A stretch of 64,000 bases of DNA from Paraspadella gotoi (lineage: Eukaryota > Animalia > Chaetognatha): NCBI GenBank assembly GCA_051294375.1, contig CM119263.1, positions 30,629,376 to 30,693,375 on the forward strand, written 5' to 3'. Under the pieces are notes generated by a model. That model did no database searches. It was not told the DNA's origin and saw only the letters and a list, made by a program, of their open reading frames with translations. Shown here piece by piece: positions 15,620 through 61,085 of this stretch (the first letter of the stretch is position 1; the number at the start of each line of letters is the position of its first letter). A program made the position numbers and the translations under genes.

Positions 15620-17167
15620 CGACGCAGAGACAGATCACGCTTAATTTCAAGTGCACGAAAAAAAAATTATCGGTTATTGAATTTACATTGTCTAACCATT
15701 TGTTCTAACAAGCCATCCCTTCCTGACAGTTATGCTGGACAAATATATGCAAAATTTGATTCGGCTAGAATGATACAGTAAAATACAGTATAAAAGTCGA
15801 AATTTGGACTGAAAAAGTAAATTGTTGTAACTTTTTTTTTAAATACAGTTATGAAAAAAAAACCACATTACCAGTATCTCTTATGTTTCTGCTCTTATAC
15901 GATATCAAAAAGTTTTCTTATTCATACAAGTATTTGTAGTAATAATTTTTTTAAATAACATATATTTTTTTAGTTTTATTTATTTTCAAGCTTACTGCTT
16001 TCATGCATCCCTTGTTCGAGCCCTGAGGTTGTCATGTAGAAAGTGGGATGGACCGGGTAACCCGCCTGTAGGCATGGGCCTACTGCCAGATCCAAAGCTC
16101 TGGACTACATGAACATGCTGTCTCGCTGTCTCCACGAGGTGACACCGCTGCGGGTGTGGCGCCCTGTACAACCAGCCTCTTCAATGTTTTATTTAAGCAT
16201 TTTTTTTCAACGAATCATTAATAATTTGTAATTTTGGTTATGAAATCAATCACTTCTAACTTCTAATGATGCATAACTATAACAAAAATTTTTAAATAAC
16301 TAACTAATGCTATAATAAATTTTTTTATTCCCTTCAGAGTACCATCATCAAATTGATTAACTTTATGTGAAGAAAACAAACAAATAACAAGAATTAACAG
16401 AAATAAATATGTTATGATAACAGCCGGGTGCGGTCACCCGAGGACGGTCTCGCTTTGCCAACGCAGAGAGAAGTCGTTAGAACTGTGGACGGAACTCAAC
16501 ACTTAGGATGGTGCGTTCCCGATGGGATTGGCTGAACGATGTGAGGCGGTGTGAATATACCACCACAATATTTACTTTTCACTTTTCATATCATTTCAAG
16601 AGCTTTAATATATCAACGTTGAATGTCCTTTGGTATTGAAGCCAAGCGGGAATCTTTTTTCGTATTTCCCAGCAGGAAAACGCTTGACTTTTTTATGGCA
16701 GAATACTTGTTCTCCGTAACCCATTTCACCAATACACGGTCATTGATGATGATGGTCTATTACAATGAACAAGTTCAAATATAAATTAAAAAAAATTATT
16801 TTGTAATTCAAGTATCATAATTCATTTACATATTTTGTACTATTCCCAGGTAAAAAATTATTTACTAATGGGTCTGAAATATTGCTCTTTTTCTGTAGAT
16901 AATGAATATCTATTGTTAAAGCTCATTATGTACATTCGTAAGGTAACCAAGGCTCTTAACATAACGCTACTATAATTTTTTGTAAACATTTTTCTGGACT
17001 TGCCCTTCTTGTGGGCGGTTGACACTCATGGAGACAGTACCTTAGATCTCCGAGTACCAAACAACAACTATAGCTAAAAGATTATGAATCAAATATGGCG
17101 ACGAGTGAAGTAAAAATGATCATAAGTAGGCTGGGAAGCAAATTAAGCGTGATATGTCTCTGCGTCT
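15620..17167. mobile_element. Non-autonomous TIR element (TA-flanked); its right ~430 bp recur at 49474-49900
   Basis: TIRs CGACGCAGAGACAGATCACGCTTAATT / AATTAAGCGTGATATGTCTCTGCGTC, flanked by TA. 16742-17167 is near-identical to 49474-49900. Confidence 0.6.
16032..16112 (+). ncRNA. Twister ribozyme (type P5 permutation, minimal P1), in a partial solo LTR (16004-16183) of retrozyme family 2
   Basis: P5 TCATGTAG/CTACATGA; AAA; P2' G(T)GG; GA; T1' TGG; ACCGGG; UAA (predicted cleavage U16058|A16059); P2 CCC; T2 GC; P3 GTAGGC/GCCTAC; P4 CCAGA/TCTGG with loop T-CCA-AAGC. All twister core positions are present. Confidence 0.85.
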
Positions 17168-21100: not shown

Positions 21101-24100
21101 TAGTGAAAGTTACATACGAAAATTCTAAAAGTCAATTATGAACAACATACCATAGTGAACATTAATTTGTAAAAAAAATTAATTTTATGTTTTTTAATAT
21201 ATTTATGCTATTTATGAAATTAGTACAACCAATATAAAAATTATCCATTCATTTAATAAATAAGCTATCTTGCCCCTGACTCTCTCACAGTCTCGTTTAT
21301 TCACTCCCAGAGTACCTGGCTTCCCTATCAATGAAGTTAAAAATATTTCAAAGAATGTTTCAATTGTATGAAAAGACCACTCCCTTAAGTATTAGATCGG
21401 GGAATACTTAGTGTACTCCGCACTAGCATCAAAATACAAGGAGCTGAATTTTATGAAATTGGTACAACCAATATAAAAATTATCCTTTCATTTAATAAAT
21501 AAGCTATCTTGCCCCTGACTTTGGACAGGCTTTGGTGGTTTAAGGCCTCCATCACTCTTACAAGATAATGACATAGCAGGTCCCTGCAAGCTTTCCTGCA
21601 TGCTATCCTTATAAAATCGAAAAATTTCAAAATAGACTTTTCTCTTAATTCTATAGCAGATTTGAATTCCTCGTCAAAAGTTGATAAAAGAAAATATAAA
21701 TAATTTTAAAAATTCTTTCATTAAGTGGGTTAAAAATTAATAAAACTATATTTAGTATATAAAAAGTTAATTTTCAGCTTAAAATATAGATTTTTTTAAT
21801 TTTTGACCCATTTAATGAAGGAATTTTTCAAAAAGAGTTATATTTTCTTTTTATCAACTTTTTACGACGAATCCAAATCTGCAAAAAAATCTTAGAAAGA
21901 ACTGTTTGGAAATTTTAACAATTTATTGGTTTAGTACTAGTATAAATATGGCCTACTGCGTAAATTGTAAAATTTATTAAAAATTTTTTTATTACATAAA
22001 TGTTCATAAGTATAATACTGTTCGTTCCTCACTTTTAGAATTTTAATTAAAGTTAAATTTAGAAATTTTACTACGCTTTAATGACTACAATGACTTTCTT
22101 AGCCCATATATTTCTGACACGCACTGAATCGGAATTTTGTTTTTTATTCTTTATAGATTTAGGATTTCTCTAAGGCGGCGCTAGCAATCCTTTAGATTTT
22201 GTATTTTTTCCTTTCTTAACAATGAGAAACCAACTATATGTAAGTTATGAGCATTTTTAACGTAAGTGGGACAGACCAATGGACGGACTAATGGACCAAC
22301 CGACGGACACACCGACTGAAAAGTCACATATAGAAAAAAACTAACCTTTATTCCTAACTTAAGATGGAATGCGGCGTTCTGAGAAATTAAAGCAAACAAA
22401 ATGAAAAGAGTTTTCAACTAATTTTTAGATCTTCCTTTTGATTCGTCTCACTGCAAGTTGTTTTGTTGGTTTTACTCAATATGATAAGAACAACTGATTT
22501 TAATCGAGTTTTACATCACGTTGTAACGAAGCAGTTAACAAAATATATTTTTGTGGTCCTACCTATTTATCTATTAGAATTGTGGTTAAAGATATCTATT
22601 GAACCAATTTTGCAGTGTGTTTTGCGTGGTTTATTTGACTGTTACATCTTCGAGCAGATTTTATTTTATAATAAGAAATGATTATGGATTAAGCGATACT
22701 TATTTGTTGACAATGTTAGTGAGACACATTTTGGGCCTTACGTTAATCATTTTAAACCTGACTTTGATATGGACTTTATTGCCTTACGTTGAATGTCGAG
22801 AGAGTTTCCCAGCGAAGAAGTTAAACTTTCTTGATTGTTATGATTATGAATGCACTTTTGTGAATTTTAATTTGGATAAATGTTTATATCGTACATGGTT
22901 AAGTTTAGTGAAAAACGAGTTCGCCCAGTTTCCATTTGTTAATACAAACAATTCCACCAAAAAATTGGTTGATATAACAAAATATACTATGGGTTTTCCA
23001 AATATCATTTATCATTCAGCACTTTTCACAGTTTGGTGCATGATACATCGTGTTGGTATGAATAAAGTTTATTCTATGAACTTTCTTGAAAATATTTATT
23101 TTCTTTTTATTAGCTGCTTTTGGTTATGCGGTTTATACTTTGTATATGGCTGGTTTAATATGTTCTTACTTTTACAATAAAAACCAAGAAAATATGTCAT
23201 ATGGTGACAGATTAAGCATACTTGATTCTTATTTCGACATAAATAATTTTGAAGAAATACAAAAGAAAATATTCCGGAAGTATTTTCTCTTAAAGGTTTA
23301 AAAGAAATTTTGTTAATGAAATATAAATGAAGCATAAAATAGATATTTAATGAATATGAAATTGGTTCAACAAGTATAAAATGATACAAACCAAGTGAAA
23401 ATATTTGATAAGCTATTCTTAAATAAATCTTCATCATCACTGGTTAATAAGGCGTAGTGAAAGTTAAATACAAAAATTCTAAAAGTCAATTATGAACAAC
23501 ATACCATCAGTGAACATTAATTTTGTAAAAAAAAAATAATTTTATTTTTTTAATTTTCCGCAGTAGGCCATATTTAATATAGTACTATCTTATAAAACGN
23601 NNNNNNNNNNNNNNNNNNNNNNNNAAATATAGTTTTTTTTAATTTTTGACCCACTTAATGAAGGGATTTTTTAAAAAGAGTTTTCATGGTATAAAAAGCG
23701 CTGATGAAGGCTCGAATTTATGAGCCGAAACATGTCTGCTAAGAAGTAAGATACAAAAATAATATCGTTGTACAAATTAATTCAAAACTTTGTTAAAAAG
23801 AGTTATATTTCTTTTTATCAACTTTTTATGACGAATCCAAATCTGCAAAAAAATTTTAGAAAAAACTGTTTTGAAATTTTAACATTTATTGGTGTAGTAC
23901 TAGTATAAATATGGCCTTCTGCGTAAATTGTAAAATTTATTAAAAATTTTTTTATTACATAAATGTTCATAAGTATAATACTGTTCGTTCCTCACTTTTA
24001 GAATTTTAATTAAAGTTAAATTTAGAAATTTTACTACGCTTTAATGACTACAATGACTTTCTTAGCCCATATATTTCTGACACGCACTGAATCGGAATTT

Positions 24101-27100: not shown

Positions 27101-30100
27101 TTTCAAGAGAACATTGTTCGAATGTATTTAATGTTGCTCCAAATTATTTACGAAAAAAATTACTTTTGAATCATTATGAAATATTGAAAAGTGCTAGATA
27201 TAAATTTCAAAAGTCATTGAACGTAATTTCACCTTATGGTTTAAAAAAAGCAATTGATATTTACGGCTCAAGTCAACCCACTCGCTTCCCTTTTGAATAT
27301 TGTACAATTCCGGCGGAAATAGAAGGTTATGTTTGTGAATTTGATAAAATAAAATATTATCATATATACATACATTAAAGCCATCTATCTGTATTGACGC
27401 TCGTGGCGGCATTTGGGCATGACTGTAGGGAGAGATAAGAGGGTCGAAGTCCGACGGCCGTGGATTCGATATCGGCGTCTTAATTTGCCCCGTTTCTCGA
27501 GATAAATATGATATTAAGGATTATAAGGACGATGAAGAAGAGGGAAAAAGGGTTGAGGCTATCTGTATTGTTTTAATAAACGTTTGAAAATTAAATTCAA
27601 ATAATCTTCAGTTTTGAAACCACGATCGTTGCCATCTTGAAAAAACAGCCAGAAAGTTGAGCCACCTCGAACACTAGCTATAAAATATATTAACAAAGAT
27701 ATTATACATCTTGTAGTCGGTCAATGAATAAGTTCACCCCGCCTATAAGAACTCCTTTGCTCATGACCATAAGGTAACAGGATTGATCTCCAATGGTACC
27801 TACCTTGCTGGAAGCGTAAGGATGGCCTTAAACCGCCTTGGGGGCCAGGAAAACCCTCAAGCCTGGTTCCAAGCCCAGGACCCATTCCACGGCTGCTAGA
27901 GAGGGTTAAAGAAGTTACGGATAGCACTCTTCAGTCCATTTAGCGCCTTATATACAATCTTATACATTTTAAAAATCTAAAAAATATTATAGTATTGTAA
28001 GCAAATTCACAAATTTAATCAGAAAAACATTCTTGGACTGATGAATCAACTTTCTTTATTGCTTGGAATTATTTTCTGGCTTTATTTGCTTTTTGCCTGT
28101 GGGTTATGATATTCTTTATAAGTTACGTTCCAGTATCTTCCTATGACATATTTATTGTAAGTTATAACCACTACAACCAGGTATATTTTAAGAAAATATA
28201 TTAGAAACGAAAAAAAATTGTTTCAACAACGATATATTTTTTAGAAAAACACATGTTTCAACTCTTTTTGCTGAAGAAGTCTCACAAAGAGAGTCTGTTT
28301 TTCTAAAAATATATAGTAAGGCGTAGTGAAAGTTACATACGAAAATTCTAAAAGTCAATTATGAACAACATACCATCAGTGAATATTAATTTGTAAAAAA
28401 ATTAATTTTATGTTTTTAAATTTTCGCAGTAGGCTATATTTATATATAGTACTATCCTTATAAAATCGAAAAATTTCAAAATAGGCTTTTCTTAATTTTG
28501 ATTGCAGATTTGAATTCCTCGTCAAAATTGATAAAAGAAAATATAAATCATTTTTAAAAATTCTTTCAATAAGTGGGTTAAAAATTAAAAAAACTATATT
28601 TAATATATAAAAAATTAATTTTCAGCTTAAAATATAGCTTTTTCTAATTTTTGACCCACTTAATGAAAGAATTTTTCAAAAAGAGTTATATTTCTTTTTA
28701 TCAACTTTTTATGACGAATCCAAATCTGCAAAAATATTTTAGAAAAAACTGTTTTGAAATTTTAACATTTATTGGTTTGGTACTAGTATAAATATGGCCT
28801 ACTGCGTAAATTAAAAAATTTATTATAAATTTTTTTATTACATAAATGTTCATTAGTATAATGTTGTTCATTCCTTACTTTTAGAATTTTAATTAAAGTT
28901 AAATTTAGAAATTTTACTATGCCTTAATATATAGTTCTTGAAAAAAACATTTTTTTTTTCGCTTTTAATTCTCAAACACATCGAAAAAAATGTTTAACAC
29001 CAAATAAAATATATTAAAATAAAACTTTTTAATGTAGAACTAATGGAATTATAGTCTTGCGCAAAATAAAGGACACTCATAAATCTTAAATTAAGGTTGT
29101 CTTACGTATAACATTTTTAAATGGGAATCCATACTAGAGCGTTGAAAAATAACAAAATATAACAAATCAAGTGAGGTACATAGCTATTTTAGTGTAATGT
29201 AGTCTGTAGAATTCGATGGTGATGACCATTTTTTTGTATAATTTTATCTTTATTGTCGGAAATGACGGTTTTTAATGTATATAAAATTGTTAGAAAATAA
29301 CAAAACTATTATAAGTTATGATAAATCATATTATTTAAATTTTATAAAATTTATATGAGCTTTTGAAATATAAAAATAAAGACTTATAAAAATATTTTGG
29401 TAAGTTTATTTCTAAATTTTATGTTTTATAAAAAGTTAGTTAACTATATTTATTAATAATTATGAGTAAAAATTGGGCTAAAGTTAAAAAATAATAATTT
29501 CAAAATTGTTTTCATGGATTTGCATTCTTTGCAAAAAGTTGATATAAAAAATATAATTTTTATATCAAAATTATGTCATTAAGTTGGTCAAAATTCAGAA
29601 AAACTATAATTTTAAGCCAAAAATTGAAAAATTAAACAAAAATAATAAATTTTAATATTTTTAACCTACTTAATGAAATAATTTTTTTAAATGGATTATA
29701 CTTTCTTATATCAACTTTTTGTAAGGAATTCAAATCCGGTTTTAAAATTGTAAAATTTTATTTTTTTACTTTAGCTTATTTTTATTATTATTTATTAATA
29801 AATATAGCTTACAAACTATTAATGAAATATAAAATTTGTAAATAAACTTACCAAAATATTTATATTGGTCTTTATTTTCATATTATGTCAGTTAAATATG
29901 GCTTTTATAAAATCTTAATAATTTGAGTTTCTTATACTTTACAATGTTTGCTCCATATATGCTGCAAAAATCGCCATTTCCGACAAAGAAGATGAGACTA
30001 TACAAAAAATGGTTATCATCATCGAATTCTACAGACTTTATTACACTAAAATAACTATTTACCTCACTTGATTTGTTATATTTCGTTATTTTTCAACGCC

Positions 30101-36100: not shown

Positions 36101-39100
36101 CCTCGCCCTTGTAAATGCAGCCAGGGAAAACTTCGAAGCCGTTAGGGAAAAAGACAGAGTCTCCATCCCGGATTATGTTGCCCAGATGCTCGTCGAAGCT
36201 CTAGAACCATATCTACCGGGCATAACCTCTGAAACCCTTGAGTGGACAAATCTACTCGAAACGGGCCAAACTCGCCAACTCGGGAAGGCCATCGAATACA
36301 AGCTGCGCGGATATTTGAAAAAGGCGTCCGACGGCGCCATTCGGAAAGTTGTCAAGACAGTCTCCGACGACGACAAGGAGAAATTGGTTAATGCCCTGAT
36401 ACAGAAGGGCCAGACGGACAAGGATCCCACCAACAGCGCTACTTCCTTTTACCAAGGATCCATGTTACAAGAAATAAATAACATGAGCGAAATGGTAAAG
36501 GAAATTAGGAAGGAGATCGGGAAACCCAGCCGAAACGGCCAGACGGAGCGTTGCTACGATCGCCGCGATGACCGACGTGAATGACGCAGCCCCGATCGCG
36601 CGTACGACAAGAAAAACTGAAAAAAAAACCCGCGATTGAAAAAACGACAGAAAAACCAATTGGCGTGACGACAGAAAAGGCAAAAAAGGCCCAAGCTTCG
36701 GTAGATGTCGCGATATTGTAGATTTAACTGATAACCTTGAAATTTATTCCTCTGATGATTTTGATGACAATTAAGATAATTACTATTACAACCGTGTAAT
36801 AAATGAATCTAAAATCGAGTTAAGACAAAAAAAGCTAAAGGACAATTATCAATCCCTCGGGGACAAAGTAATGAAAGTAGAAACAGCTGACATCAGTGAA
36901 TCAGAGAAACAAAGGGCAAAAACCCTCGCCGAGACAGCACATCAGCTAAGAGGGAAATCTACAGCATCCCAACTACACAGACTTCTCAAACCGCTCAACG
37001 CGAAAGAGATAGCCCTCACGAACAAATTCTTACACAAGCTGGGCTGGAGAGATTGGGCCAAAATCGATGCAGGCGAAAAGAAGGTCAGAATCTCCAGATC
37101 GAGGGCCTGTGCCAAGCTCACACGCAGAGCAGATAGAGCCAAAGCAAACAACTTCACGCCGGGTAATTCCAACGTCCAACCTCGCGAAGAGCTTCCAACC
37201 GGGAAGCTGATAATCCAATCCCCCCCCCGCCAAAAAGCAGAACAATAGGCAAAACCCGGATAGGAGAAACAGTAGACCAACCCTGCGAAAACTTCGGCCA
37301 ATGGGAAATAAGGGCAACCCCACGTACACAATAATCGCAGAACAATCAGGCGAGTCACTCCACCAGGCCACCATCAGGCGAGTGGAGCTGGAGTGCCACC
37401 AGCCGGAACTATTTCTCCAACCATCAGCAAAACCGGAATCTACCAAGGATGAAAAAGATTTGCCTTCTCTTCCCGAAAAAGCAACAAACATCCTCAAAGG
37501 TGACAAAGGCCCGGAGCCCAGAGATGACACTGGAAAAGCCTGCCACTCTGGCAAAAACAGCTATATTCCTACAGTCATCGCGGGAGTACCAGCAAGTTGC
37601 TTGTATGACACTGGAGCATCAGTGAATACAATCCCGAGAAAGTTCATAGACAAATGGTCATTGAACAATAGGATTTACCATGGATCGCCACTACGCCTGT
37701 CAACAGCTACAGGCACGCTCACACTAATGGAAAGAATCGACTTAAGAGTAATGTTCCAGAAATGGGTCCTGAAGACGGTTTTCTACATTTCAGCCAATGA
37801 GGATGACCAGGACATAATCATCGGCACAGCAATTACAAACCCAGGCCCTCCTGAACAACTCTGGGTTGTACAATGTACAACCATCGGGACAAAAAGACAA
37901 CTTGCAAATCGCTTCGATAGCAGGAAAACCGGTCACCCACCTTTTTGGAGACAAACACGAGGCGTTGAAAGCTGCGAGATGGTTAGCCAGAGGAAACCTG
38001 GACGAGCAGACTTCCTTACCAGTCGAGCTTGACCCTGACAGAACCACAAAGCTCACGTCCAGCAGGCCATACTGGAAAACGCTTGCTGGCTCAAGATGGA
38101 TTGTGGAGTCTCTAAACGACGACAAGGCTTATATCATCGACGGCGACCAACTCTGAGGAGTAGAAATAAATGCCCAACCCGGAGCCTGGGGATTTGCTCG
38201 CCCATTGATCACAAATGAAGCAAATTCCGAATTAGGTCTAGAGACAAAAACCACAGCTGACATGTCTGAAGAAAAACCCCTACTCAGGAAGATCAGAAAA
38301 GACAACATCCCCGCCACAACGATCATCCACCATAAACTGTCAGAAGAGGAAATCCGAGCGGTGGAGGATGCGCGCAAAAAAAGGCGCGAAAAACACGACG
38401 CCCGTGGAAAAGAGGCGTTCCTAAAACCTTTCAAGGATGTTGATCCCAGCCTACAAGAAAAGGCCCACCTCATCTGGGAAATCGTCTGGGACTACAGAGA
38501 TGTCTTTGGAGAAACAATCAACGATTGTAAGGACCTCGGTTTCACAGAAGAGGATCTGCCAAAACCAAGATTTGCAAACCAAGGCCCGGTAAAGAAGGCA
38601 GCCCTCAAAAGATACTTGGAGGTTTATGAGAAAGCTGGCATCGTCTCCCAAACTAGGAATGAGGCCTACTCAAACGCTTTCCTCATCAAAAAGCCAGGAC
38701 ATATTGCTGAAGGTCAAGACAAAATGAGTGATGAGACATTCGCGAAATAATGGAGACTTATTTGTGACTTATCAGCCGTAAATAACATTTCAACATACGC
38801 CACTGAACCACAAACAATCACCTCCATCCTCAAGCAGTATAAACCGCATGAGCTACAATGTTTGGTTGACATTCTCGCTTGTTTTCACCAAGTGAACCTG
38901 TCGGATCGCTGCAAACTGGTTACAACGTTTGCAGGGGCAGGCCACAACTGATTGATGAACAAGCTGCCCATGGGAGGCGTCAATAGCGTCAATGTGCTGC
39001 AAGCCATTCTCGATGAAATTTTTCAGGACCTGGGCACAGATGTCAAGAGTTTTCTCATATATGTGGACGATCTGATACTGACCGCCAAATCGCCCGAAGA

Positions 39101-42100
39101 TATGGTGCAAAGACTCCACGACCTCCTCCAGAGATGCAGGGATGAAAATGTCGTCCTCAAGTGGACCAAAAGAGTGCTCCTCCGGAAGGAGGATTTAAAG
39201 ATCCTTGGGTTCAACATCTCAAGGAGTAAGCTCATGCCACAAAAAGAGAAGCTTGAAGCAGTTGAAGTAAAGTTGAAGAAGCTAAAGACTCAAAAGAAAC
39301 TTAGAGCGATGCTAGCCTCTCTCAACAGATGTTTCACACACCGCTTCTCTTACATCGCCCAACCACTACACGCCCTCACATCGCTTGACAAAAAGAACTT
39401 CAAACTCACCAAAAAACATACCGACATGTTGCAAACCTTGATCAACGAGATCAAATCGTCACCAGGTCTAAATTTCCTCAACGATGCCAGAATAAAACAT
39501 GGCACGTACAGAATCTACGCTGATGCAAGTACCAGCGCAATGGGAGGACTCATCACCGTCACAGCAGATGGCATTGAGTATCCACTCTCCTTCCACTCAA
39601 AATCATTCCCGGAAGAATATAGGATCAAACATCAACATTCTCGAAACCCTGGCTTTCAACATGATGGTTAGGAAGTTCAAGGGGTACACATGTGGAAGAA
39701 GGGTGACTCTGGTAACAGACTCAAAATACTTCAAAAGAATCATGGACTTACAGCACGACAGACAGCAACTCCTGCCCACAAACGTGCTCAGATGGATAAT
39801 GGAAATCCGCCAAGAGTGTCAGCCGAAAGAAATAATCCTCGTGAAGAGCGAGGACAACCCGGCCAACTTCCTCACCCGCTTTACCAAACAGGGACAGGTC
39901 ACCCCACTGGACACCCCTTTCTTCCCCCCCTTTTTGACGTGGAAGGCAACTACGAACCCGGTTTCGCCGAAAACCCAATTGACAGCCAAGAAACCCAAGA
40001 ACTCGAGATTGACACCAAAACATTCAGGGAAAAATTCATCTGGCAGAAGTTCGGCGAAAAGAAAAATTACAGAAAAACTGTATGGCAAACCCAAAACCAA
40101 GGATGCCGACACTTTCATCAGAACCGTTGCTGCCAAGGACTGGAGCTTAGGTCACCCAGAGCTTGAGTTACTCAGTGAAATGACCGACATCACCATGATG
40201 GAAGAGGAATTCGTCAATCAAACGGGCTGTAAATATGAAAGAGTATACGGGAAACCCGGATACAACAGAAAGATAAAAATATTCAGAACGATAACGGGCC
40301 AAGTCAGCCTCATCAGCAACATCAACCCACAACGGCCCCTGCACCCCCCCGCCGGAGGTCCGATCCAGACCATCAAGGTCTCCGACCTCCGCCCGCCAGA
40401 GCGCCGCGGAAGGCCCAAACAACCAAGAAACGACCAGTACCAGACGAAACAACCCCCCCAGGACCTTGTCAACATAAAACTCAAGCACAAGAACATGCGT
40501 CCACCAACCCCAACGGCAGCTATGGACATGGTAGAAACAACGTGGCCAGGAGCAGACATGGAAGCCATGGTCGATAGCGCACTGGAGGCAGACGTCGACG
40601 CTTCAGAGTCGGAAATCGCCCAGGAAGTGAGGCAGCCTAGTGCCAAACAAGAAAAATTACTCCCTATGGCAGCCACGGTAAAGGATTGGCAACAAGAAGA
40701 AGAATTGTTCAGAACCGTCATAAGCGCCTTACTAGAACATGACCGTGAAGCCGCAGAGGTGCTCCTAAACAAAAAGATGGAAAAGCGAAAGACGCTAACA
40801 GAAAGATACCTCGCCAACAGTCTCACTGACCTCGACGTGACAGAAGATGGCATCCTCGTGATCAAAGGATACAAAAATAACAATCAGACAACCAAATACG
40901 TCGTGCCCCCAAATAAGGCCGAGGAAGTCGCGACAAAACTGCACGAGCATTTCGGCCATCCTGGTTGAGACAGGACAGCTTTCATAACGGCACAATATGT
41001 TTCAGCACCAGGGTTATCAACCGCAGCCGCCAAATGCGTCAGAAATTGCAATAACTGCGCAAAATCAACAGATACCCAGAGACACAATGAAACACCGTCT
41101 GCACCAAACCTGGCCCTCACACCATGGGAATCACTCAGCATCGACGTAATGCACCTCCCCCCTGTATCCGGATACAATTACATCCTCGTAGCATCAGACA
41201 ATGCTTCGGCTTATACCTGGGCCATTCCCCTACGCCGAGCCAATGCAGAGAGCCTTGTCCAAGCCCTTGACCAGAATATATTCCTCCGACACGGGTCATA
41301 CATGGAAGTAAATTTCAACGGAGCAACACAACTAAACGGAAAGACAATGAAGTCCATTCTCGACGCGTCTTAGTAGGAAGGACAGTAACAGGGCCAAAAG
41401 GGACATCGGCAGAATCCGGCAAGCATTGAGAAAGGCAGTGGAAGATCAGCCAAAGAGATGGCTGGAACAGCTCCCACACTTAATGCTGCTACTAAACGCC
41501 ACACCAATAATCGGTTGGAAAAGCAAAATGTCTCCTCACGAAATTCAATTTGGACACAGGCCAAGAATCGTTGAGGCGGCGGACGATTACACAAAAAGAA
41601 ACTTAATAGACTTCATCCGAAAAAGGGCTGACCGACAAGAACAGGCAAGATCCAAACTTGCAGATCAACGCACAAAGCTCTATAAGCAGTCATCTCGTAA
41701 CAACCCATACAGGAAACCCGAAAATATCAAAGTGGGTGACCTAGTCCTGGCCAGACGAGACCTCATCATGACAGGAACCACGAAAGCTGAGAACAAGGTC
41801 AAACGTATCAATTCAATCAAGTCATTGAAAGGGACGCCAACCATTTCGTCCTCTCTATCAGCTGCGATCGAAAGATCGCGACGACGATAATAACGAAGAA
41901 ACCGCCGAGAAGCCAAACCGAATCAGCGAAGCCTCCTCCTCCTCCTCATCGGAGTCGAAGAGACGAATATAAAAAGAACGAAAATAGAGGCAAAGAAATC
42001 ACGTTTCGACGCAGAATCCTGAGCCAAACCACGCGCAAAAGGAGAATTAAATAAAAACCAAAACAGTCTTTTTTAAGGCTAAATCTAAAAAGATCCTAAG

Positions 42101-45100
42101 TAAAAAAGAAATAAACCAAAAAGTTTTTTTTAAAAACTCGGCCAAAAAGTCTTTTTAAAGACGGGCGATAAACAGAGACAAAGTGGTGCATGTGTTTGAT
42201 TGCAACAAGACTCGCCACATCGCTACTGGACCCCCATCACTGTGACACACTCAAGCCAAAAAGTTGTACGGGGTGAACTGGTCTTCATCCCGGACAAAGA
42301 AGAACACAACGGAAAAGGCTGTGATCTAACCATCTCAGTAAAGGGAGCTGTCTGCGGATGGTGGTCTATCCAATATCCCAAAATCAGATCGGTAGACCAT
42401 TTTTCCCTCACCAGAGCCCAATGTCTGATTCTGCACAACGGAAGGAAGCTAACTCTGGATAATCTGCCCATAAAAACATCAGACAGAACAGGGCTAATGG
42501 AACCACTCACACTATCCGGCGGAAAACTTGGACTCAATCAAGCTACTTTCGAGATCGGACGGAAAAACTCCATGCAAAGAAAGTCCCGCGGTGAAGAGAA
42601 GCCTCGAAACATACTGGAAGGCCTGTCTTAGTAACTTTGTACGGCCAAACATGTCCAACAACCATGAGAGATGCGCTCCAATATGCGATGCCAACCAGAA
42701 GGTCCTCTTCACACTACAGCTTACAGGAGAAAGTATGCAGGTCCCGGGTTGTGGAATCAAAGTGGAAGGAAAAAGCTCCTCGAACTTTTATTTCACAAAC
42801 CAAATTACGAAGGAACAAGCCCAGAAAAACCAGGCAAGCCTGGAGGCCCTGACCAAATCATTGCGCAAGGAGATCTGTGCCCTAAAAGTCACCGAGGCAA
42901 GAAAAATAGCACAAATCGCCCACAAAAACCCAACGTCGACAGCCTTTATCAAAAGAGGGCTAGTCGCCGTAATCCGTGGAGAGCTGCTGCTTACGGCACA
43001 ATGTGATCAAACCCTGGCACACGTGAGGAAGACTAAAGAGTGCTACCACGACCTACCAATAGACTTCCGCGGCCAACAGACTTTTCGACACGCCATCTTC
43101 CACCACGTCAACCCAAACAAGCTGCTCGCCGCCACCAGTCTATTACCAGAACAATAAGTACAGAACGACGGACAACAGCGTGCAGCAAAATTACAAAGAA
43201 ATCACAGCAAACATCCCCGATGCACAGGAACGCATCTCCGTCGAAGAGGACCCCTACGTCCAGATCGGAGCCTTTCTCAAACACCATGACAATTACATAA
43301 CGGACCAACAGAACTTCAATAAACATGTTGGAGAAATCGCTTCGAGCACGCCTTACTCAACCGCCAAAAAAATATTTGGCGACATACCAAGGTGGACATG
43401 GCTGGCAGACATGACGAACGTTATCCCCTTCGCTGTCGCCGCCATTATCATCATCATAAGAATAGTGATCGCATACTGCTGCCCCCTACGAATGCCCGGA
43501 CTGACGCAGAGGCAGACACCCACACCGACGATCACCTGGGAGCAGGCACAAAGTAGGATATTCGTACCTATCCCAGTCCCCACTCGTGCTTCAGACTGAC
43601 CACATACGCCGTCGTCAGAGGAGGGGGCGACGCATTGCAGATGGAATCAGAACCAAAAATAGGAATCGGATCAGCGACTCGGATAAAATTTACCAAGGAC
43701 TCTGTGATTGGCTGAATCATCATCAAAACGGACCAATGAGAAGACAGGCTTCATGCCATCGGGAAATGAGCCCATGTCGATGATCCGATTGTATTGTATA
43801 AATACCAGACCATTTTGTATTGAATGCATTCTGCCTGAAATTCTGACACCGTCTTTGCCTGTGACTTTTCTGAGAATAAAATCCATTTTGGTTTCATGTT
43901 GAAATCTCTGTCTACTTACTTAAATGATCGCATCACTAATTAGTTATCATATCAATAATCAATTACTATTATATCAATCAATTACTATTACATCACTCAA
44001 ACAATTACTATTATATCAATCAATAAATTAATATTATATCAATCAATCAATTACTATTACATAAATCAATTACTATTACATTAATAATTTGTTATTGCAT
44101 CAATCATTTGTTTGTTTTTTTTTAATTTTTTCATTAATTCTTTTGATAGTAACGTCTGGCAAGATCACTAGACTTTTAAGATTTGTTGTCTCATGGTTAT
44201 TGGTCTTGTGACTTACGTATTTGACATTTGAATTTTTAACACTAATTTTAATTTTAATCCAAAAAATTGTAAAATATAATTTTTATTATTTCATTTTGTT
44301 TTATCTTTACTGAATAATTTTTTGTTTTTATCATAGTTTTCGATAATTTTTCCAATTTTATCATTCATTTGTATTGTGGATTTTATCATTTGGATGACAA
44401 TTAAAATTTGGTCAGATCAGCTTCTTCTGTCGGGCACCAAAGCATTGAAGATAAAATTTACAAAATACATTTTAAAAACTATTGAAAAAATCGTTTCAAC
44501 CTTTCTCTTTGGGTACAAGATAATTATTCCAATGGAAATTTGTTATAAAAAACTTCCATGGAATTGTCATCATTGGATCATTATTATTTTCATGTGTCTC
44601 TTAAATTTAACTACTATGTATTATTCTCTCAGGGCTTATATTTTTATCAGAAAATCTCGAAACTACTGCGCTTATTACCAAAAAGCTCTTGATTCAAGAG
44701 TTTGTTTAAAATTAAAGCAAGCAGTTGATGCTAAATGTTTAGAAGAACAGTGCCGGCTCTTGTATAATAAAACAAACAATTCTATCTTTTTGTCAAAATC
44801 TTGTTCAAATATTTCAGCTCTCACATGTAGGATCTTCTCTTTTGCTTTAAATAGCATAACAGTATTATATAATAGAACAATGAATATTAAATATTGAATA
44901 TTGAAGGACCTCCATTATAGCATTTAAAAAGAACGAATTAAAAGATATCAAATTGAGTTCTTAATTAGATTACTGTTATATAGTCCGAAGAATTTGGTGG
45001 TGATGACCATTTTTTGATAATTTCATATTTCATGTCAGAAAGGAGCATATTTTAAACATATAAAAGGGTAAAAGGGTATGTCAAAAACAAATTGTTTAAT

Positions 45101-48100
45101 TTTTTTAGAAGTCATATTTAGTATAAAAAGTAGTAGAAGGAAAAAAGAAATTTTTTTGAGAGAACTAGAAGTTATAAAAAGTGTTCAATTTTGGCCCGCC
45201 TTACTAGATATATTGCATGTGATTAAACAATGTTATCGGAATAATAATTTTATCAATTTTAAGTATTTTGTAAGTATTTTAAGTATTTTTATTCAGTGAG
45301 TAAAATAACAACTTTTTTATTCGCTAATTTTTATCTCGGACTCTCTCTTTCTCTCTCTCTCTTTGCAATTGCGACGATCCTTATGCTCATTTTTCTGCTC
45401 TTTCTCTCTCTCTCTCTCTCTCTCTTTTTCTGCAATTGCGACGATCCTTATGCTTTTAGGATTTTTTTAACTTGCATCATTTTTCTGCTTGCATCATTTT
45501 TTCAACTTGCATTTTTTTTAAATTGCATCATTTTTTCACATTAATTAATTAATTAATTAATTAAAACATTTATTAGTAATCATAAATTAGTAATCATAAA
45601 TAATAAAGATTCAAATAAATGTGACTTATGTTTTTTCCATTTAAACTCATTTCCACTGGCAAAATTCCGTCAAAACTTTATATCTAGCTTCTGCACACAC
45701 TTTCCTACCCGCTCACAAAATTTCATCTCAATCTATTATGGGTTAAAATAAGTAAAAAGAGTCAAGTAAATGTGACTTATATTTTTTTCATTTAAACTCA
45801 TTTCCACTCAGCCAATCACGAGTTATTAGGGCTTTTTGCTAAGGTGGGACGGATTGATTGATTAATTAATTAGTGATTAATTAATTGATTAATTAACTGA
45901 TCAATTATTTGATTTATTAATACATCCTGCATATACATTTAATATAAAAGGGAAAAAAATCATAATCAATTAGTGAAACAGGTTTTTTGTTTTTTTCCAT
46001 TTAAACTCATTTCCACTCAAACGATTCCATCGAAACTTGGTTTCCTGTTCAATCACACACTTTCCTACTCACATACAAAATTCCAGGTCAATCGCCCCAT
46101 CCACTCATGAGCAATTGGTGTTCAAATAGTGAATTATATTTTTTTGTTTTTTCCATTTAAACTCATTTCCACTCGGATGATTCCATCGAAACTTTATATC
46201 CAGCTCAATCACACACTTCCCTACCCACACACAAAATTTCATTTAAATCCATCCATCCAATCACGAGTAATTGGTGTTTTTTGCTAAGGTGGGACGGACG
46301 GACGGACGGAGGGAGGGACGGACATCATTTTTTTTGCATAATTTATCATAATTCGATGTTCTGACATGATATAAGTTAGTGCCCGACAATATTGAGGGGG
46401 CGGACCGACGGACCGACAAAGTGAATTATAGAGTCGGAATCTGCTGATAAGCAGATCCGACTAAAAAAAAAAGAATTCAGCAGAGAAAATAAAGGGACAA
46501 AAACTGAGGCGAGTATCGCGACATTGAAATTTTAACCACTCCTTGGACTCCACTTCCACAAACGATGGCACCGCTAACTACAGACGACGCTGACGCCGCC
46601 GTCACCGTGGATTAATCATAAGAGAATCATCGCGACCGTAAATATGCGGCGACAACGACGTCTCTCTCTTTCTTTCTGTCTCTCTTTCTTTCTTATTTTA
46701 TCTCTTTCTTTCTTTCTTCTCTTTGTCTTTTTTATTCCTTTTAGTTTTACTCTTTATTTTTTTCTGAATTATTTATAAATAAATTCTTTAGTTTATGGTC
46801 AAAATAATTCGGTAACTCGAGATTTTTTTTTTTGATTTTGGTTGCTTAGCAGATTTAGTAAGTAATTTAATAATTATTCCTAAGTTGCCTCACTAACAAA
46901 ATTAAAAACGTCATATACTTTCATGTATCTCCAAAAGCATTTTTGAAGATCCAAAATAATGTGTTTTTTAGATTCTGAGGTATCATTCGAAGAAAAGTTG
47001 CTAAATTTAAACTCAGCAAAGGCATATAGTTACATGTTATCAACCCAAATGCTCTTGAAATTTTGTCAAGAATATTCAACTTGGTATTCTTGGAGAAATT
47101 TAGTTCATAGTAATTTTGTTAATATACTTATTTATTTTATGGATTTTAGTCTTTTTTTTGGAAACCAATTTTGCTATACATTTCAAACAGATAATTTTAG
47201 TTTATTTCCATTATTAGTGAGTTTATTATTTAGTTTTTTTGCTACTGCTGTTATAAATGCAAAATATTCAAGTTACTCAATGGCTTGTTTTTATTATTAT
47301 AAGGAATATAATATCACAGTTAAAACAGTAAAGAATCTGTTACCAAATTCAGAAAATCTTTTAAAAAAACAATGCTTATCATACCTTCGACTTAATTATT
47401 TGGTTTACAATCGTATTTCATTATTGCTTTCTGATGATTTGATTGATCTCCCACAACACTTAAAGCTCTCTGGAAAAATAAAGAAAAAAATACTAAGGAA
47501 GAAAAGTATTTTTTCATATTATGATTACAATTTAAAGCAATCTGTTACAGCCTCTGGAATGTATGTATTCTATCCTCCAGGTCAGTAAACATAATTTATT
47601 TCAAGGAACAACCCGGTAATGATGATGAAGTTTATAAGAATTTTGATCAACCCCAATAATTTTTCCCTTTATAATTTTTTTAAAACTTTGACTCAAAATT
47701 TCTTTTTTTTAAATTAAGTAAGAATTTATATGTTTAATTATTCAATAATCAAAATAAAGCATTTTTTCGGCTCTATGTATGTAGTCGGGCATTGCATAAG
47801 TTCTCCCCGCCTATAAGCATGATACCTTAACTCGTGACCCGGTGGCTTCCCTACTGCGTCGAAATGCCTGTCGGCGATGGCGGCCAGTTCCGCCGCTGTC
47901 AATGATTCGGCGCGTTCGATAACGTTCGCATTGACCGCTGGAGGGAGGCTTCTAATGACGAGCTACTTCCTGATGTCGTCAATGTTGACCGTCGACGATT
48001 TCACTACCAAGCGGGCGAGGGGTTGCGACGGTCGCATGTCGTCACTGGAATTCTTGGCCTTAGGTAGGGGTAGCCGCACTCAATGGGGTGAGTCAAAAAT

Positions 48101-53278: not shown

Positions 53279-53875
53279 TGAAGAGGCTGGTTGTACAGGG
53301 CGCCACACCCGCAGCGGTGTCACCTCGTGGCGACAGCGAGACAGCATGTTCATATAGTCCAGAGCTTTGGATCTGGCAGTAGGCGTTTGCCTACAGTCGG
53401 GTTACCCGGTCCATCCCACTTTCTACATGTCAACCTCAGGGCTCAAACCAGGGACACACATTGGGATGGTGCATTAGTCCACTGAGCCACTGCGAAAGAA
53501 AAAGCTTTAATCCATCTGTGGTGATAGGGCCACCAGACAGCAGCCCCCAGGACTGTCACATATGAGAGTATGAAGTAGGGGATGAAACGCATGTCTCTCC
53601 GCTGAACCTCTCTTCATTCTGGTGGCCTTGCTTTGAGTGGCAGCTGCGTAGCTCAAACCACATCAAGGGCAGAGGAATATTATCATGCCCGGTTTGCATG
53701 TTTAGATCACGTCGGGCTCACCATTGAAGAGGCTGGTTTTACAGGGCGCCACACCCGCAGCGCTCAGGGCTCGAATCAGGGACGCACATTGGGATGGTGC
53801 ATAAGTCCACTGAGCCACTGAGGCGCAGCGAAAGAAACAGCTTTAATCCATCTGTGGTGATAGGACCACCAGACA
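53279..53875 (-). mobile_element. Twister-ribozyme LTR retrozyme/TRIM, family 2
   Basis: On the minus strand: 5' LTR 53875-53725 (TG…CA, internally deleted), 18-nt PBS TGGTGAGCCCGACGTGAT (53723-53706; tRNA-Trp-like), ~165-bp non-coding interior, G-run PPT, 3' LTR 53539-53279 containing the tRNA-like module and twister. No clean TSD. Confidence 0.8.
53351..53429 (-). ncRNA. Twister ribozyme (type P5), T2 mutated (GC->GA)
   Basis: Reverse complement: CATGTAG-AAA-GTGG-GA-TGG-ACCGGG-TAA-CCC-GAC-T-GTAGGC-AAAC-GCCTAC-T-G-CCAGA-TCCAAAGC-TCTGG-A-CTATATG. Confidence 0.75.
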
Positions 53876-56553: not shown

Positions 56554-57677
56554 TAATGTTTTGCGTTTTATTAGCATTTTATATACATTAAAAATCGTCA
56601 TTTCCATCAAGAAATATGAAACTATCCAAGAAAATGGTTATAACCATCGAATTTTTCAGACCTGATTACAGTAAAATAATTATGAATGAAATTTATTATC
56701 TTATATCTTGTTATCTTTAAACGTTCTATTGATCATAATCATCACGCTTTCCCTTTAAAATCTATTGAAAACAAAAATTTCAACTTGAAAAAAAAAATTG
56801 GTTGATTTATTATAATTATCATAGTAAATAAGTTAGGATTTACATAATAATTTTTTATAATAAAAAATCAACAAACTGACTTTTTATCGCCCAATTTTTT
56901 ATTTTTATATCAGATAACTTCACAATCAGCGTTAAAAATTAACTTAAAATTTTGAAGAAATAACTACGCGCCTGAGAGTAACTGTGATTATTAAAGCGTA
57001 GCAAAAATATTAAAATCAAGTAGAATCAAAATTCGAATAATAGATCATGAACATGCTTGTACCTGTAAACATTTCAGCAGATCCCGACTAGTGTTCCGTT
57101 AACCGTTAATTTTTGAGGAACTTCGCTTAACCGTTAAAACTAACGTTTTTAACGGTTAACCGTTAAAATCGGTTAATTTTATAATTAAACATTAAATTTA
57201 AAATATTAATATTTAAAACTTACTAAAGTATTTACTGGTATTTTCTCCTTAACTCCGGCTACTGAATCGTCTTTATCTTTTATTTCAGATAGATGAGGTA
57301 CACATTATAGTTGATAAATGAGAAAATTGGTTTGAAAAAACAGCATTATAATAATTTTTTTTGCCTCATAGCTTAATAAAAATATGAAAAAATACTGAAA
57401 GAAAAAGCACAATGTAATTTTAATTCTGTATATTTTGTTTTCTCTTTCTCTCTTTTTCTTTCTTTCTTTCATTTTCGCTTTTTCTTTTTCTCTTCCTCAT
57501 TATTTTTATAGTTGTTAGTATTTCATTGAAAGCATGTTTTCTGTTGTTAGTCTTTCAATAACCCATGACTATAAAATAATAATATGAATATTAGGTTAAG
57601 ACTTCTTTCAAGTTATCTTAACATGTGAAGAGACAGTAATTATTGATAAGTGTTAATGACAGAACCGTTCAATATAA

Positions 57678-57750
57678 GCAGTTCTGAGCTTCGGATCAGG
57701 CTGTAACACCATGTTACAGGCGGGTTAAGCGCCCCGTCCCTCTTAACTGC
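57678..57750 (-). ncRNA. Twister ribozyme (type P5) in the 3' LTR; one G missing in P4
   Basis: Same sequence as 58086-58159 except TCAG for TCAGG. Confidence 0.75.
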
Positions 57751-58085
57751 AGACGACCACGGCTAGAACCCCGGACCTTTGGTGGGAGGCGAATGACTTG
57801 CCTCGGGCACCAATGGCCGCTGATGAAGGTTGGTGGATTTTAGTCCACCATACATCCCCCTCCCATAGGGAGAAGTCTGTTGCGTCTCTTCAGTGAATTG
57901 TTGTTGGTGGAAAGTTCGTCACCAAGTTGAGGCATGTCGCCTGATGTGTTGTGGGCGGAAAGTGCATCGCCAGGTTGGGCATGTCGCCTGAAAGTGTTGT
58001 TGTTGCTGTTGTGTTCGGAGTCGGGCTCACCAATGAAGAGACAGTGATTATTGATATATGTTAATGACAGAACCGTTCAATATAA

Positions 58086-58159
58086 GCAGTTCCTGAGCTT
58101 CGGATCAGGCTGTAACACCATGTTACAGGCGGGTTAAGCGCCCCGTCCCTCTTAACTGC
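58086..58159 (-). ncRNA. Twister ribozyme (type P5), intact, in the 5' LTR
   Basis: Reverse complement: GCAGT-TAA-G(A)GG-GA-CGG-GGCGCT-TAA-CCC-GC-C-TGTAACA-TGG-TGTTACA-G-CCTGA-TCCGAAGC-TCAGG-A-ACTGC; T1 pseudoknot CGG/CCG, T2 GC/GC. Confidence 0.88.
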
Positions 58160-61085
58160 CAGACGCACACCGGGCTAGAACCCCGGACCTTTGGGTTGGG
58201 AGAAATGACTTGCCTCCGGCACCAATGGCCGCTGATGAACGGTTGGTGGATTTTAGTCCACCATACATGGAATAAAAACCCATTGTTTGTAAACAAATAA
58301 ACTTTGTTTTCTTTTAATTATGAATATCAATTTATTAATTGAATGGTTGAATGATCGATTGATCAAAAGACTTATTAATTAATAAATATTTTTTTAAATT
58401 TTATTAAAGTAAAGTATATCATCATTGAAGGATAGTTTTAGTTTGCCTTAATGTCTTTTCAAAGATTCATTCCTTCTGTTGTTCATTTTTTAAATGTTTT
58501 TCTAATAATTTTTTTATTTTAGTTTTTTTAATTTTTTCATTCATTCGGCTTTATTTATTTACTTCTTTGTTCGTTTTAAAAATTGAAAGAAAAATCTAAA
58601 AAAAGTAAAATAAGAAAGATCTTTTTTTATTTAGCAAAATAGAATATTATTGCATGTAAAAATTTGATTAGCAAAAAAATATATGTAGATGCATATTATA
58701 TTTCAAAATATTCTTTGATGTAAATGTATAAAATTAGCTGAAAGTAAAAACGAAAACAATTGGGAGAAAGTAAAAAAATTACCGGAAGGGCAGAAAAAAA
58801 TGATAATAGATTAGGAAAGAAAAAGATTAAAAGGGTTGAAAATAACAAAGAAAAAAAAGGGGAAAATATAAAACAGAGAGAGGGGCAAAAATAAAATGAG
58901 AAAGGGAGAGGAGAATAAGGAAAAAAAATTTTTTTCTTAAAAAATCAAAGTTTTCATAACAAAAAATAACAAAAATCATACTTGAAAATTAACCGAATTT
59001 AACCGTTAAAATAAATATATTAACGGTTAAGTTAAAATTATTTTTAACCGTTAATAACCGTTAACTGTTTACGGTTATTGGAACTCTAATCCCGACTCTA
59101 TAATTCACTTTGTCGGTCCGTCGGGCCGCCCCCTCAATATTGTCGGGCAATCACTTACATCATGTCAGAACATCAAATAATGATAAATTATGCAAAAAAA
59201 TGATTTCCGTCCGTCTGTCTGTCTGTCCGTCCGTCCCACCTTAGCAAAAAGCTCCAATAACTCGTGATTGGGTGGTTAGATTGGAATGAAATTTTGTGTG
59301 TGGGTAGGAAAGTGTGTGATGAAGTTGGATATAAAGTTTCGATGGAATCGTGCGAGTGGAAATGAGTTTAAATGGAAAAAACATAAGTAGCATTTACTAA
59401 AATATTTTTACTTATTTTAACCAATAATTACTCTAATTAATTATAATTGGATGAATAGATTGAGTTGAAATTTTGTGTGTGGGTAGGAAAGTTTGTGCCG
59501 AAGCTTGATATAAAGTTTTGATGGAAACGTGCGAGTGGAAATGAGTTTCAATGAAAAAATATGAGTCACATTTACTTCAATCTTTTTACTTGTTTTAATC
59601 CATAATTACTCGAATTAATTATAATTGAATTAATAGATTGAGATGAAATTTTGTGTGCGGGTAGGAAAGTATGTGAAGAAACTAGATATAAAGTTTTGAT
59701 GGAATCGTGCCAGTGGAAATGAGTTTAAATAGAAAAAAAAATTAAATTTACTTGAATCTTTATTATTTATGATTACTAATAAATGTTTTAATAAATAAAT
59801 TAATTAATTAATGTGAAAAAATGATGCAATTTAAAAAAAATTTGCAAGTTAAAAAAATTATGCAAATGAAAAAAAATGATGTAGGTTAAAAAAATGATGC
59901 AAGATAAAAAAATGATGCAAGTTGAAAAAATGATGCAAATTGTAAAAATGATTCAAATTGAAAAAATGATGTGAGTTGAAAAAATGATGTGAGTGGAAAA
60001 AAGTATTAGGAGTTGAAAAAATGATGCAAGTTATTTAAAAAAATATTGTGATTTATCATCTGATTAGCTGATTACCGCTTAATTATCGTAGGCAGATCCG
60101 ACATTGTTTGCTCAAACTTGTTATTTTTCAATTTTTGCATACGCTCTTATTTTTACATATTACTTACCATAAAAAAATGTTAAAATTTTCAAATGTTTTT
60201 TCTTATTTTTAAAAGCAGATTCGAATTCCTCATGAAAAGTTGATAAAAGGAAACTCTTAGTAAGCCTATTCCATTAAGTGGTCCCAAATTCCTAAAAAAA
60301 CTATTATTATTAACCTATAATTAAATTTTATTATATAAAAAATATAGTTTTTTAGTCGGATCTGCTTATCAGCAGATCCCGACTCTATAACTCACTTTGT
60401 CGGTCCGTCGTCCGCCCCCTCAATATTGTCCGGCACACACTTATACATGTCAGAACATCGAATTATGATAAATTATGCAAAAAAAAACGATGTCCGTCTG
60501 TCCGTCGTCGTCCGTCCGTCCGTCCGTCCGTCGTCCTCCGTCCCGTCCGTCCCACCTTAGCAAAAAACTCACAATTACTCGTGATTGGATGGATGGATTG
60601 GTATGAAATTTTGTGTGTGGGTAGGAAACAGTGTGATTGAGATGGATATGAAGTTTCGAGGGAAATCGTGCGAGTGAAATTGGTTTAAATGGAAAAAACA
60701 AAAAAAATATATTTCACTATTTCAACGCCAATTGCTCATGAGTGGATAAGGCAATTGACTTGAAATTTTGTATGATGGTAGGGAAGTGTGAGATTGAGCG
60801 GATATAAAGTTTCGATGGAATCGTGCGAGTTAAAATGGAAAAAAACAAAAGTCTATTACTTGAAGTATTTTTACTTAAATTTACTCATCAATTATTATGT
60901 TTATTAAAAATTGGATATGATGATCGAAATGAATTGTTGTGTGTGGGTAGGAAAGTATGTGATAAAGCTGGATATAAATTTTTTGATGGAATCGTAGGAG
61001 TGGAAAAGAGTTCAAATTAGAAAACCAAAAGACACATTTATTTGAATTTTTAAAGTTTCTCTCTCTCTATCTCTCTCGATGATTG

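Follow-up and report, generated by a model that had tools for sequence, protein, structure and literature searches.

A candidate LTR retrozyme with twister ribozymes in the chaetognath Paraspadella gotoi

The described systems closest to the element reported here are of two kinds, given from the available parts of the papers cited. Helenus elements are TRIMs (terminal-repeat retrotransposons in miniature) with tRNA-derived long terminal repeats (LTRs), a 4-bp target site duplication (TSD) in animals and a Gypsy-type primer binding site (PBS) (Kojima 2024, PMC10886601); in the available text of that paper ribozymes appear in a reference title only. LTR retrozymes, which a 2020 review (PMC7761336) and a 2026 preprint (10.64898/2026.07.22.740005) assign mainly to plants and to type III hammerheads, carry in plants a ribozyme in each LTR, a PBS, a polypurine tract (PPT), a 4-bp TSD and no open reading frame (ORF), and their predicted monomer is R-less (Cervera 2016, PMC4918200). 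Here we describe family A, a non-coding LTR element on the minus strand of a 64,000-nt stretch of Paraspadella gotoi DNA (assembly GCA_051294375.1, contig CM119263.1, positions 30,629,376 to 30,693,375), hereafter the window, whose own positions are used throughout. By its frame family A appears to be a Helenus-type TRIM; it would function as LTR retrozymes do, a P1-less twister taking the hammerhead's place, and would thereby join the two known kinds. The reading that we favour, and consider rather probable, is that twister would cut its transcript to a 409-nt monomer, which would be circularised and copied by a Gypsy element primed with tRNA-Trp. The frame of family A consists of the following features.

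57626-58265, minus strand: family A LTR element, 640 bp, non-coding, TA…CA termini
58266..58269, no strand: 5' TSD copy CATG, matching 57622-57625
57622..57625, no strand: 3' TSD copy CATG, a perfect 4-bp duplication with 58266-58269
58034..58265, minus strand: 5' LTR, 232 bp, TA…CA, with contig loose ends at 58265
57626..57852, minus strand: 3' LTR, 227 bp
58020..58032, minus strand: PBS of tRNA-Trp type, in agreement at 12 of 13 nt with the Trp PBS that Fig S2 of PMC10886601 gives
57853..58033, minus strand: internal non-coding region, 181 bp
57855..57864, minus strand: PPT GGGAGGGGGA, 2 nt ahead of the 3' LTR

By sequence anatomy and insertion signature, family A is a many-copy non-coding LTR retrotransposon. 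When the two LTRs are aligned, 218 of 234 columns are identical, 7 are mismatched and 9 hold gaps; the PBS starts one base past the 5' LTR and the longest ATG-started ORF has 37 codons. An earlier note on this DNA had described the repeats, this PBS and the lack of an ORF, all of which were borne out, as was the length of 640 bp. However, it had the element end at 58267, while the TSD and the loose ends place the end at 58265; it had the repeats begin with TG, but the TG at 58267-58266 is part of the CATG TSD and lies outside the element; and the PPT, which it had abutting the second LTR, is present but separated from it by 2 nt. Of 13 sequencing runs listed, 11 contain part of the window, none of these being listed as RNA, which counts neither for nor against expression. 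Contigs from four of four sequencing runs (3 studies) were compared with the element. Loose contig ends accumulate at 58265 (134, 102 and 27 in runs X4, X5 and X9) and at 57626 (105, 72 and 24 in the same runs), with 45 at 58266 and none at 58267 among the positions listed, and the flank consensus beside both termini leans to ATAT. These sharp clusters at both termini indicate a real family with at least ~100 distinct insertion junctions in the reads, the summed depth not being a copy number. Run X9, which we guess to be RNA, has the same many-flank pattern as the DNA runs and is uninformative on expression. Two candidate structures in the interior were set aside as weak, namely structured internal regions (z score about -0.4) and pairing of an internal stretch (57870-57890 in family A and 53595-53620 in family B, described below, both on the minus strand) with the element's own LTR end beside the PBS, to which it is complementary; 73 of 500 shuffles match this pairing in A and 14 of 500 in B, where alone it reaches weak significance.

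Each LTR of family A also contains a predicted self-cleaving ribozyme, as LTR retrozymes do, and its features are these.

58086..58159, minus strand: type-P5-like twister of the 5' LTR, general-base G58147, T1 at 58145-58143 pairing with L4, predicted cut between U58136 and A58135
57678..57750, minus strand: twister of the 3' LTR, predicted cut between U57727 and A57726, 66 nt identical to the 5' copy
58137..58142, minus strand: 6-nt self-complementary linker GGCGCU in place of P1
57727..58135, minus strand: predicted monomer between the two cuts, 409 nt, A58135 to U57727

The order of parts is the same in both LTRs (P5, a bulged P2, GA, T1, UAA, T2, P3, P4 and L4). Like the type-P5 twister (RF02684) and the Perere-3 variants of S. 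mansoni, family A has the UAA cleavage site, the general-base G followed by A, two pseudoknots and a U-NNN-AAGC L4 loop, and its P3, P4 and L4 look similar by eye to the S. mansoni sequences given in the available Table 1 of PMC8501958. It is unlike them in having a 6-nt palindrome instead of P1, a P2 of 3 bp whose bulge is fixed, P3 together with P5, and a site in LTRs and not at the 5' end of a long interspersed nuclear element (LINE). The earlier claim that a complete type-P5 twister stands in each LTR holds for the layout but not for completeness: there is no P1 hairpin, the 6 nt that separate T1 from UAA being unable to form it. The monomer length given in the earlier note is right, but the monomer would start at A58135 instead of U58136. 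A strict descriptor matched three places in the window, namely both family A LTRs and a family B copy at 16 kb, and was matched in none of 3000 element shuffles and none of 40 window shuffles. Metagenome contigs gave no match in two pattern scans, and Rfam found no hammerhead, the type III hammerhead of plant LTR retrozymes included, in family A. The idea that the twister is the longest identical block between the LTRs was dropped as weak (P 0.37).

Other copies in the window, which fall into four families together with family A, were compared with it.

53279..53873, minus strand: family B element arranged in the same way, box A perfect, Trp PBS of 19 nt at 53723-53705, TSD imperfect, ATTG/ATAG (3 of 4)
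16008..16183, plus strand: family B LTR, 5'-truncated, with an intact twister core and a predicted cut after U16058
30179..30358, plus strand: family A-like solo LTR whose twister has lost its catalytic half by deletion, with a repeat at 32255-32434 on the other side of an N gap
27710..27933, plus strand: family C piece resembling a solo LTR, twister at 27800-27889 with the general-base G changed to A, CTCTTCA end as in A and B
21506..21571, minus strand: family D twister, core intact but P3 absent, in a repeat that has neither PBS nor PPT
~14650-14870, plus strand: decayed copy of family D

Between families A and B there are compensatory pairs in T1 and P4, and 94% of the cells are paired compared with 19-43% in slid controls (4 rows, 2 families); the score of this comparison is reached by 16 of 500 shuffles, again with 4 rows only. 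The core is the best-aligned part of the A and B LTRs, whose remainder has diverged. A model built from four A and B copies recovered two variants that look unrelated, C (27800-27889) with 25.6 bits and D (21506-21571) with 18.9 bits. Across the six copies the first pair of P2 is C-G or A-U with a bulge of A, U or C at a constant position, T1 is CGG/CCG, UGG/CCA or GGA/UCC, T2 is GC/GC or AC/GU, and P3, P4 and P5 vary in sequence while pairing is kept (P3 being absent in D); the general base is lost in family C only. A relaxed descriptor that allows linkers of 3-12 nt finds exactly these six copies, and 0.33 matches per shuffled window. The family A variant rows that were listed, 40 of 66, leave G58147, A58146, the linker and UAA untouched. 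A check with the Rfam twister models, which the earlier note had proposed for 58086-58159, came out negative there even at E<=10. The earlier note had named such a missing match among the outcomes that would refute it. We do not count it as a refutation because the relative in family D does match Rfam Twister-P5, although below threshold (E 7.7e-4 when 151 bases are searched, the P1 loop having zero length in the alignment), and because the pairs covary. It has been reported that P1 is dispensable, and that imperfections and bulges in P2 are tolerated, in tested natural twisters (available part of PMC11662667). The twister fold is very probably real, and the family A twister is probably active. 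The non-autonomous LTR architecture put forward earlier, with a Trp PBS, a PPT and a twister in each LTR, is strengthened by the TSD, the insertion junctions and the covariation in four families.

The linker that stands where P1 belongs is 6 nt long in all six copies and reads GGCGCU in family A and ACCGGG, UGGCCU or AGGCCU elsewhere. None of the four linkers folds into a hairpin and each has a palindromic core, the whole linker of family D being a perfect palindrome, with a self-duplex of -8.1 to -9.1 kcal/mol; among hexamers matched in GC content, 4.7%, 5.5%, 1.7% and 0.4% reach the energy of the respective linker. The palindrome was noted in A and B before C and D were found, but C and D make a single forward test because one core is common to both and they may be related. 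With a harsher null of GC-only cores, the odds of this forward test are 1 in 4 and those of three cores are 1 in 64. A comparable arrangement is known from hammerheads that act as dimers in Penelope-like elements and in the non-LTR retrozymes of animals, in which a stem that is too short (stem III in Penelope hammerheads) and ends in a palindromic loop is completed when tandem copies pair (available parts of PMC6765202 and PMC7761336); these differ in ribozyme class and in having no LTR, PBS or PPT. By analogy there is about an even chance that two LTR copies could pair through their linkers to form two swapped cores on a shared P1. This double twister stays a hypothesis because P1-less monomers can cleave. 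If the LTR twisters did pair and cut jointly, cleavage would be tied to full-length transcription and the ends of the monomer would be kept within the active site, ready for ligation. In nested folding of the precursor the linker-linker pairing probability is 0, a result that is neither for nor against the dimer because pseudoknots and the swapped fold cannot be modelled by this method.

The 5' part of the LTR carries what appears to be an RNA polymerase III (Pol III) module, listed here for the 5' LTR.

58245..58263, minus strand: hairpin at the LTR start, z score -3.6; family B has one too
58222..58231, minus strand: Pol III box A, degenerate, one base shorter than the box of family B, aligned to the perfect box A of B
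58172..58182, minus strand: Pol III box B, 1 mismatch to the consensus

In family B box A is perfect and lies 40 nt upstream of box B, and this pair of boxes, scored with consensus boxes, is reached by 0.1% and 0% of 2000 shuffles of its two LTRs. The earlier note had a tRNA-like cloverleaf in each LTR, which did not survive: ARAGORN found no tRNA gene in the 64,000-nt window, Rfam gave no tRNA match over the family A module, and the module folds are unremarkable (z scores -0.5 and -1.3) with no cloverleaf. Of a tRNA origin only boxes A and B seem to be left in the family A LTR.

The described kind nearest to family A, not mentioned in the earlier note, is the Helenus TRIM (PMC10886601), whose frame family A fits, so that the tRNA-type LTR with a Pol III module is already known. 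Several features that define Helenus/TRIMp3 are found in family A, which is non-coding, shorter than ~1 kb, has two LTRs with tRNA-derived sequence and boxes A and B, a PBS and a PPT, and, as in the animal families, a 4-bp TSD (CATG on both sides). Helenus elements also share solo LTRs and a Gypsy-type PBS, including that of tRNA-Trp, and the LTRs of some Helenus consensus sequences in the available data start with TA. The PBS of a Helenus element is one that an autonomous Gypsy in its own genome also has. Unlike Helenus, family A has a more decayed tRNA remnant, confined to the 5' half of the LTR and followed by the twister. From plant LTR retrozymes, as far as the available part of PMC4918200 describes them, it differs by twister instead of type III hammerhead, a Trp instead of a Met primer, an animal host, internal Pol III boxes, a predicted monomer of 409 nt compared with 600-1000 nt, and a circle that is predicted. 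Cassandra and Ajax TRIMs are similar in the remnant of a Pol III promoter within the LTR, but this is 5S-derived, the TSD of Ajax is 5 bp and no ribozyme is described. Upstream of the 5S part, both Ajax LTRs in the available part of PMC10886601 DataS1 contain an 11-mer that reads the same as twister A in its UAA-P2-T2 stretch; it may be chance, since a full twister could not be completed by eye. In the same available data, the LTRs of the wasp elements Helenus-2_SyJa and Helenus-2_SyUm, which have a Trp PBS, show downstream of the tRNA module, where the twister stands in family A, what looks by eye like a type III hammerhead core whose loops are complementary; the paper makes no mention of it. 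The internal parts of both contain T4 runs. Twister circles, viral ribozymes and insect type III hammerheads are described without an LTR context in the available parts of 10.1101/2022.07.19.500677, PMC13725137 and PMC7936874. In full-text literature searches, no twister-bearing LTR element and no dimeric twister came up among the listings and the openings of abstracts, subscription journals and Repbase being outside this scope.

According to the reading that we favour, Pol III would start near boxes A and B of the 5' LTR and transcribe through the whole element, and both twisters would then cut between U and A, possibly as a double twister in which the paired linkers supply P1. A host ligase, or else the ribozyme, would close the monomer, which has 5'-OH and cyclic-phosphate ends, into a circle; circularisation would be needed because cutting removes the terminal redundancy that is required for strand transfer. 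A Trp-primed Gypsy reverse transcriptase, likely of CsRn1 type, would then go round the circle and rebuild both LTRs, or leave solo or tandem forms, and Gypsy integrase would insert the new copy. That a circle serves as template for tRNA-primed reverse transcription has been argued for plant retrozymes (available part of PMC4918200), and Gypsy elements of the CsRn1 clade have a Trp PBS and a 4-bp TSD (available part of PMC2582038). The PBS of family A matches the published Trp PBS of a wasp Gypsy (PMC10886601) and that of family B equals it (Fig S2) in 17 of 19 nt, both having G instead of C at position 7. Contig joints near the cut site were rejected as support because they are weak, being single contigs among 83; a circle junction in reads would look like an LTR.

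Several observations weigh against this reading. The predicted circle is 53% paired (z score -2.3), whereas more than 70% is reported for metazoan hammerhead repeats, and the only full Gypsy in the window (34818-43927) has a PBS unlike those of A and B. Box A of family A failed a 2-mismatch pattern and was assigned through homology to family B. The family A sense strand has no T4 run, which counts for little because 14% of shuffles share this property. In family B a T5 run lies immediately upstream of box A in the 3' LTR, though not in the 5' LTR, and at this run Pol III would halt ahead of the second twister. The Rfam twister models fail on families A and B, and no scored twister reaches the Rfam gathering threshold, D being the best with 25.8 of 37.6 bits. 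Finally, intact cores are found in 4 of 11 LTR or unit copies of the window (both A LTRs, B at 16 kb and D at 21.5 kb), while 7 of 11 are damaged, 3 by point changes or decay and 4 by deletion; two of the four deleted copies are one possibly duplicated copy. In the family B element the 3' LTR twister has a point change in T2 and the 5' LTR twister is deleted.

The best surviving alternative is that an active twister cuts only one LTR per molecule, so that a linear Pol III transcript with a trimmed 5' or 3' end goes through ordinary strand transfer, sufficient redundancy being left for it, and no circle is formed. The twisters of Perere-3 process 5' ends (available part of PMC8501958), and the T5 run of family B, its LTR without a twister and the modest structure of the predicted circle all fit a single cut. 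The palindromic linkers in four families, on the other hand, suggest paired cleavage, and family A has two identical cores with no terminator in between. We regard a single cut as unlikely, though it deserves to be kept in view. Less likely still, and in our judgement improbable, is that family A is an ordinary Helenus TRIM which once acquired a twister from a short interspersed nuclear element (SINE) or an RTE element and now carries it as a passenger with no role in transposition. The damaged or deleted twister in 7 of 11 copies speaks for a passenger, and the missing Rfam matches of A and B agree with it, as does the animal part of the available Helenus data (PMC10886601 DataS1), where no twister was seen by eye in the LTRs examined, the fungal parts having been searched for motifs only. 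However, a passenger accounts poorly for a core that is better aligned between A and B than the rest of the LTR, for compensatory changes across four families, and for the lack of variants at the catalytic positions and linker of family A among the rows listed. That two tandem SINE-like or non-LTR retrozyme units merely imitate LTRs is very improbable and for A and B largely refuted, for although schistosome SINE-like repeats join a Pol III promoter to a hammerhead (available part of PMC6765202) and the family D twister has no PBS or PPT, the animal non-LTR retrozymes are tandem type I hammerhead units without either, while family A has a PBS, a PPT, a 4-bp TSD, a terminal CA and an internal region of its own, occurs as solo LTRs as well, and shares its PBS with a second family.

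Returning to the LTR retrozyme with twister, a wider proposal, which we advance tentatively and with less confidence than the reading itself, is that LTR retrozymes exist in animals, Helenus-type TRIMs driven by Pol III having taken up self-cleaving ribozymes on two or more occasions (twister here, a hammerhead in gall wasps) and moving via small circular RNAs, with a natural double twister in family A whose P1 has dwindled to a palindrome. If true, the usual split between LTR retrozymes of plants, carrying type III hammerheads, and animal non-LTR retrozymes with type I hammerheads would be gone, and the ribozyme class would be interchangeable. Twister ribozymes, whose known biological roles are few, would gain a concrete one, TRIMp3 would be linked to circular-RNA replication, and the palindromic P1-less twister that four families conserve would represent this ribozyme in dimeric form. 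Since standard Rfam scans miss the P1-less twister, similar elements may have been overlooked elsewhere.

Some further observations concern the families and their surroundings. Three independent deletions, in families A (30179-30358), B (53725-53873) and D (~21211-21355), each take away the site where the cut is predicted. Reverse transcriptase that jumped on a cleaved template could have left them as scars, or they could be an escape from self-cleavage; their ascertainment is biased. The family D repeat (21211-21620, minus strand) has a second unit downstream with the twister deleted, and no PBS, PPT or Pol III boxes were seen in it; family D is possibly a non-LTR tandem twister element. At 47780-47962, 38 nt match the start of family C (89%) and abut an ORF fragment on the opposite strand. 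This fragment (47741-47962) is possibly gag-like by its motif, Pfam and the atlas giving no support.

The Gypsy at 34818-43927 (plus strand) is broken and env-bearing, with LTRs of ~300 bp, and encodes a protease, reverse transcriptase, RNase H and integrase together with a fusion-protein domain of Monjiviricetes type (E 1e-10). The window also has four tandem calcium-binding EGF exons, which like this Gypsy suit an animal host. A MYND protein matched none of 1941 candidates, and in the atlas nothing beyond generic cNMP clusters came up. Near-identical duplications of 2.0 kb (30069-34191) and 1.8 kb (21824-25563) flank two gaps of 25 N and are likely assembly artefacts. An abundant repeat with CCGT/CTGT microsatellite stretches and 178-179-bp subrepeats occurs at 59089-61000, 30500-34000 and 45800-46470, and resembles elements of the DINE-1/Helentron type.

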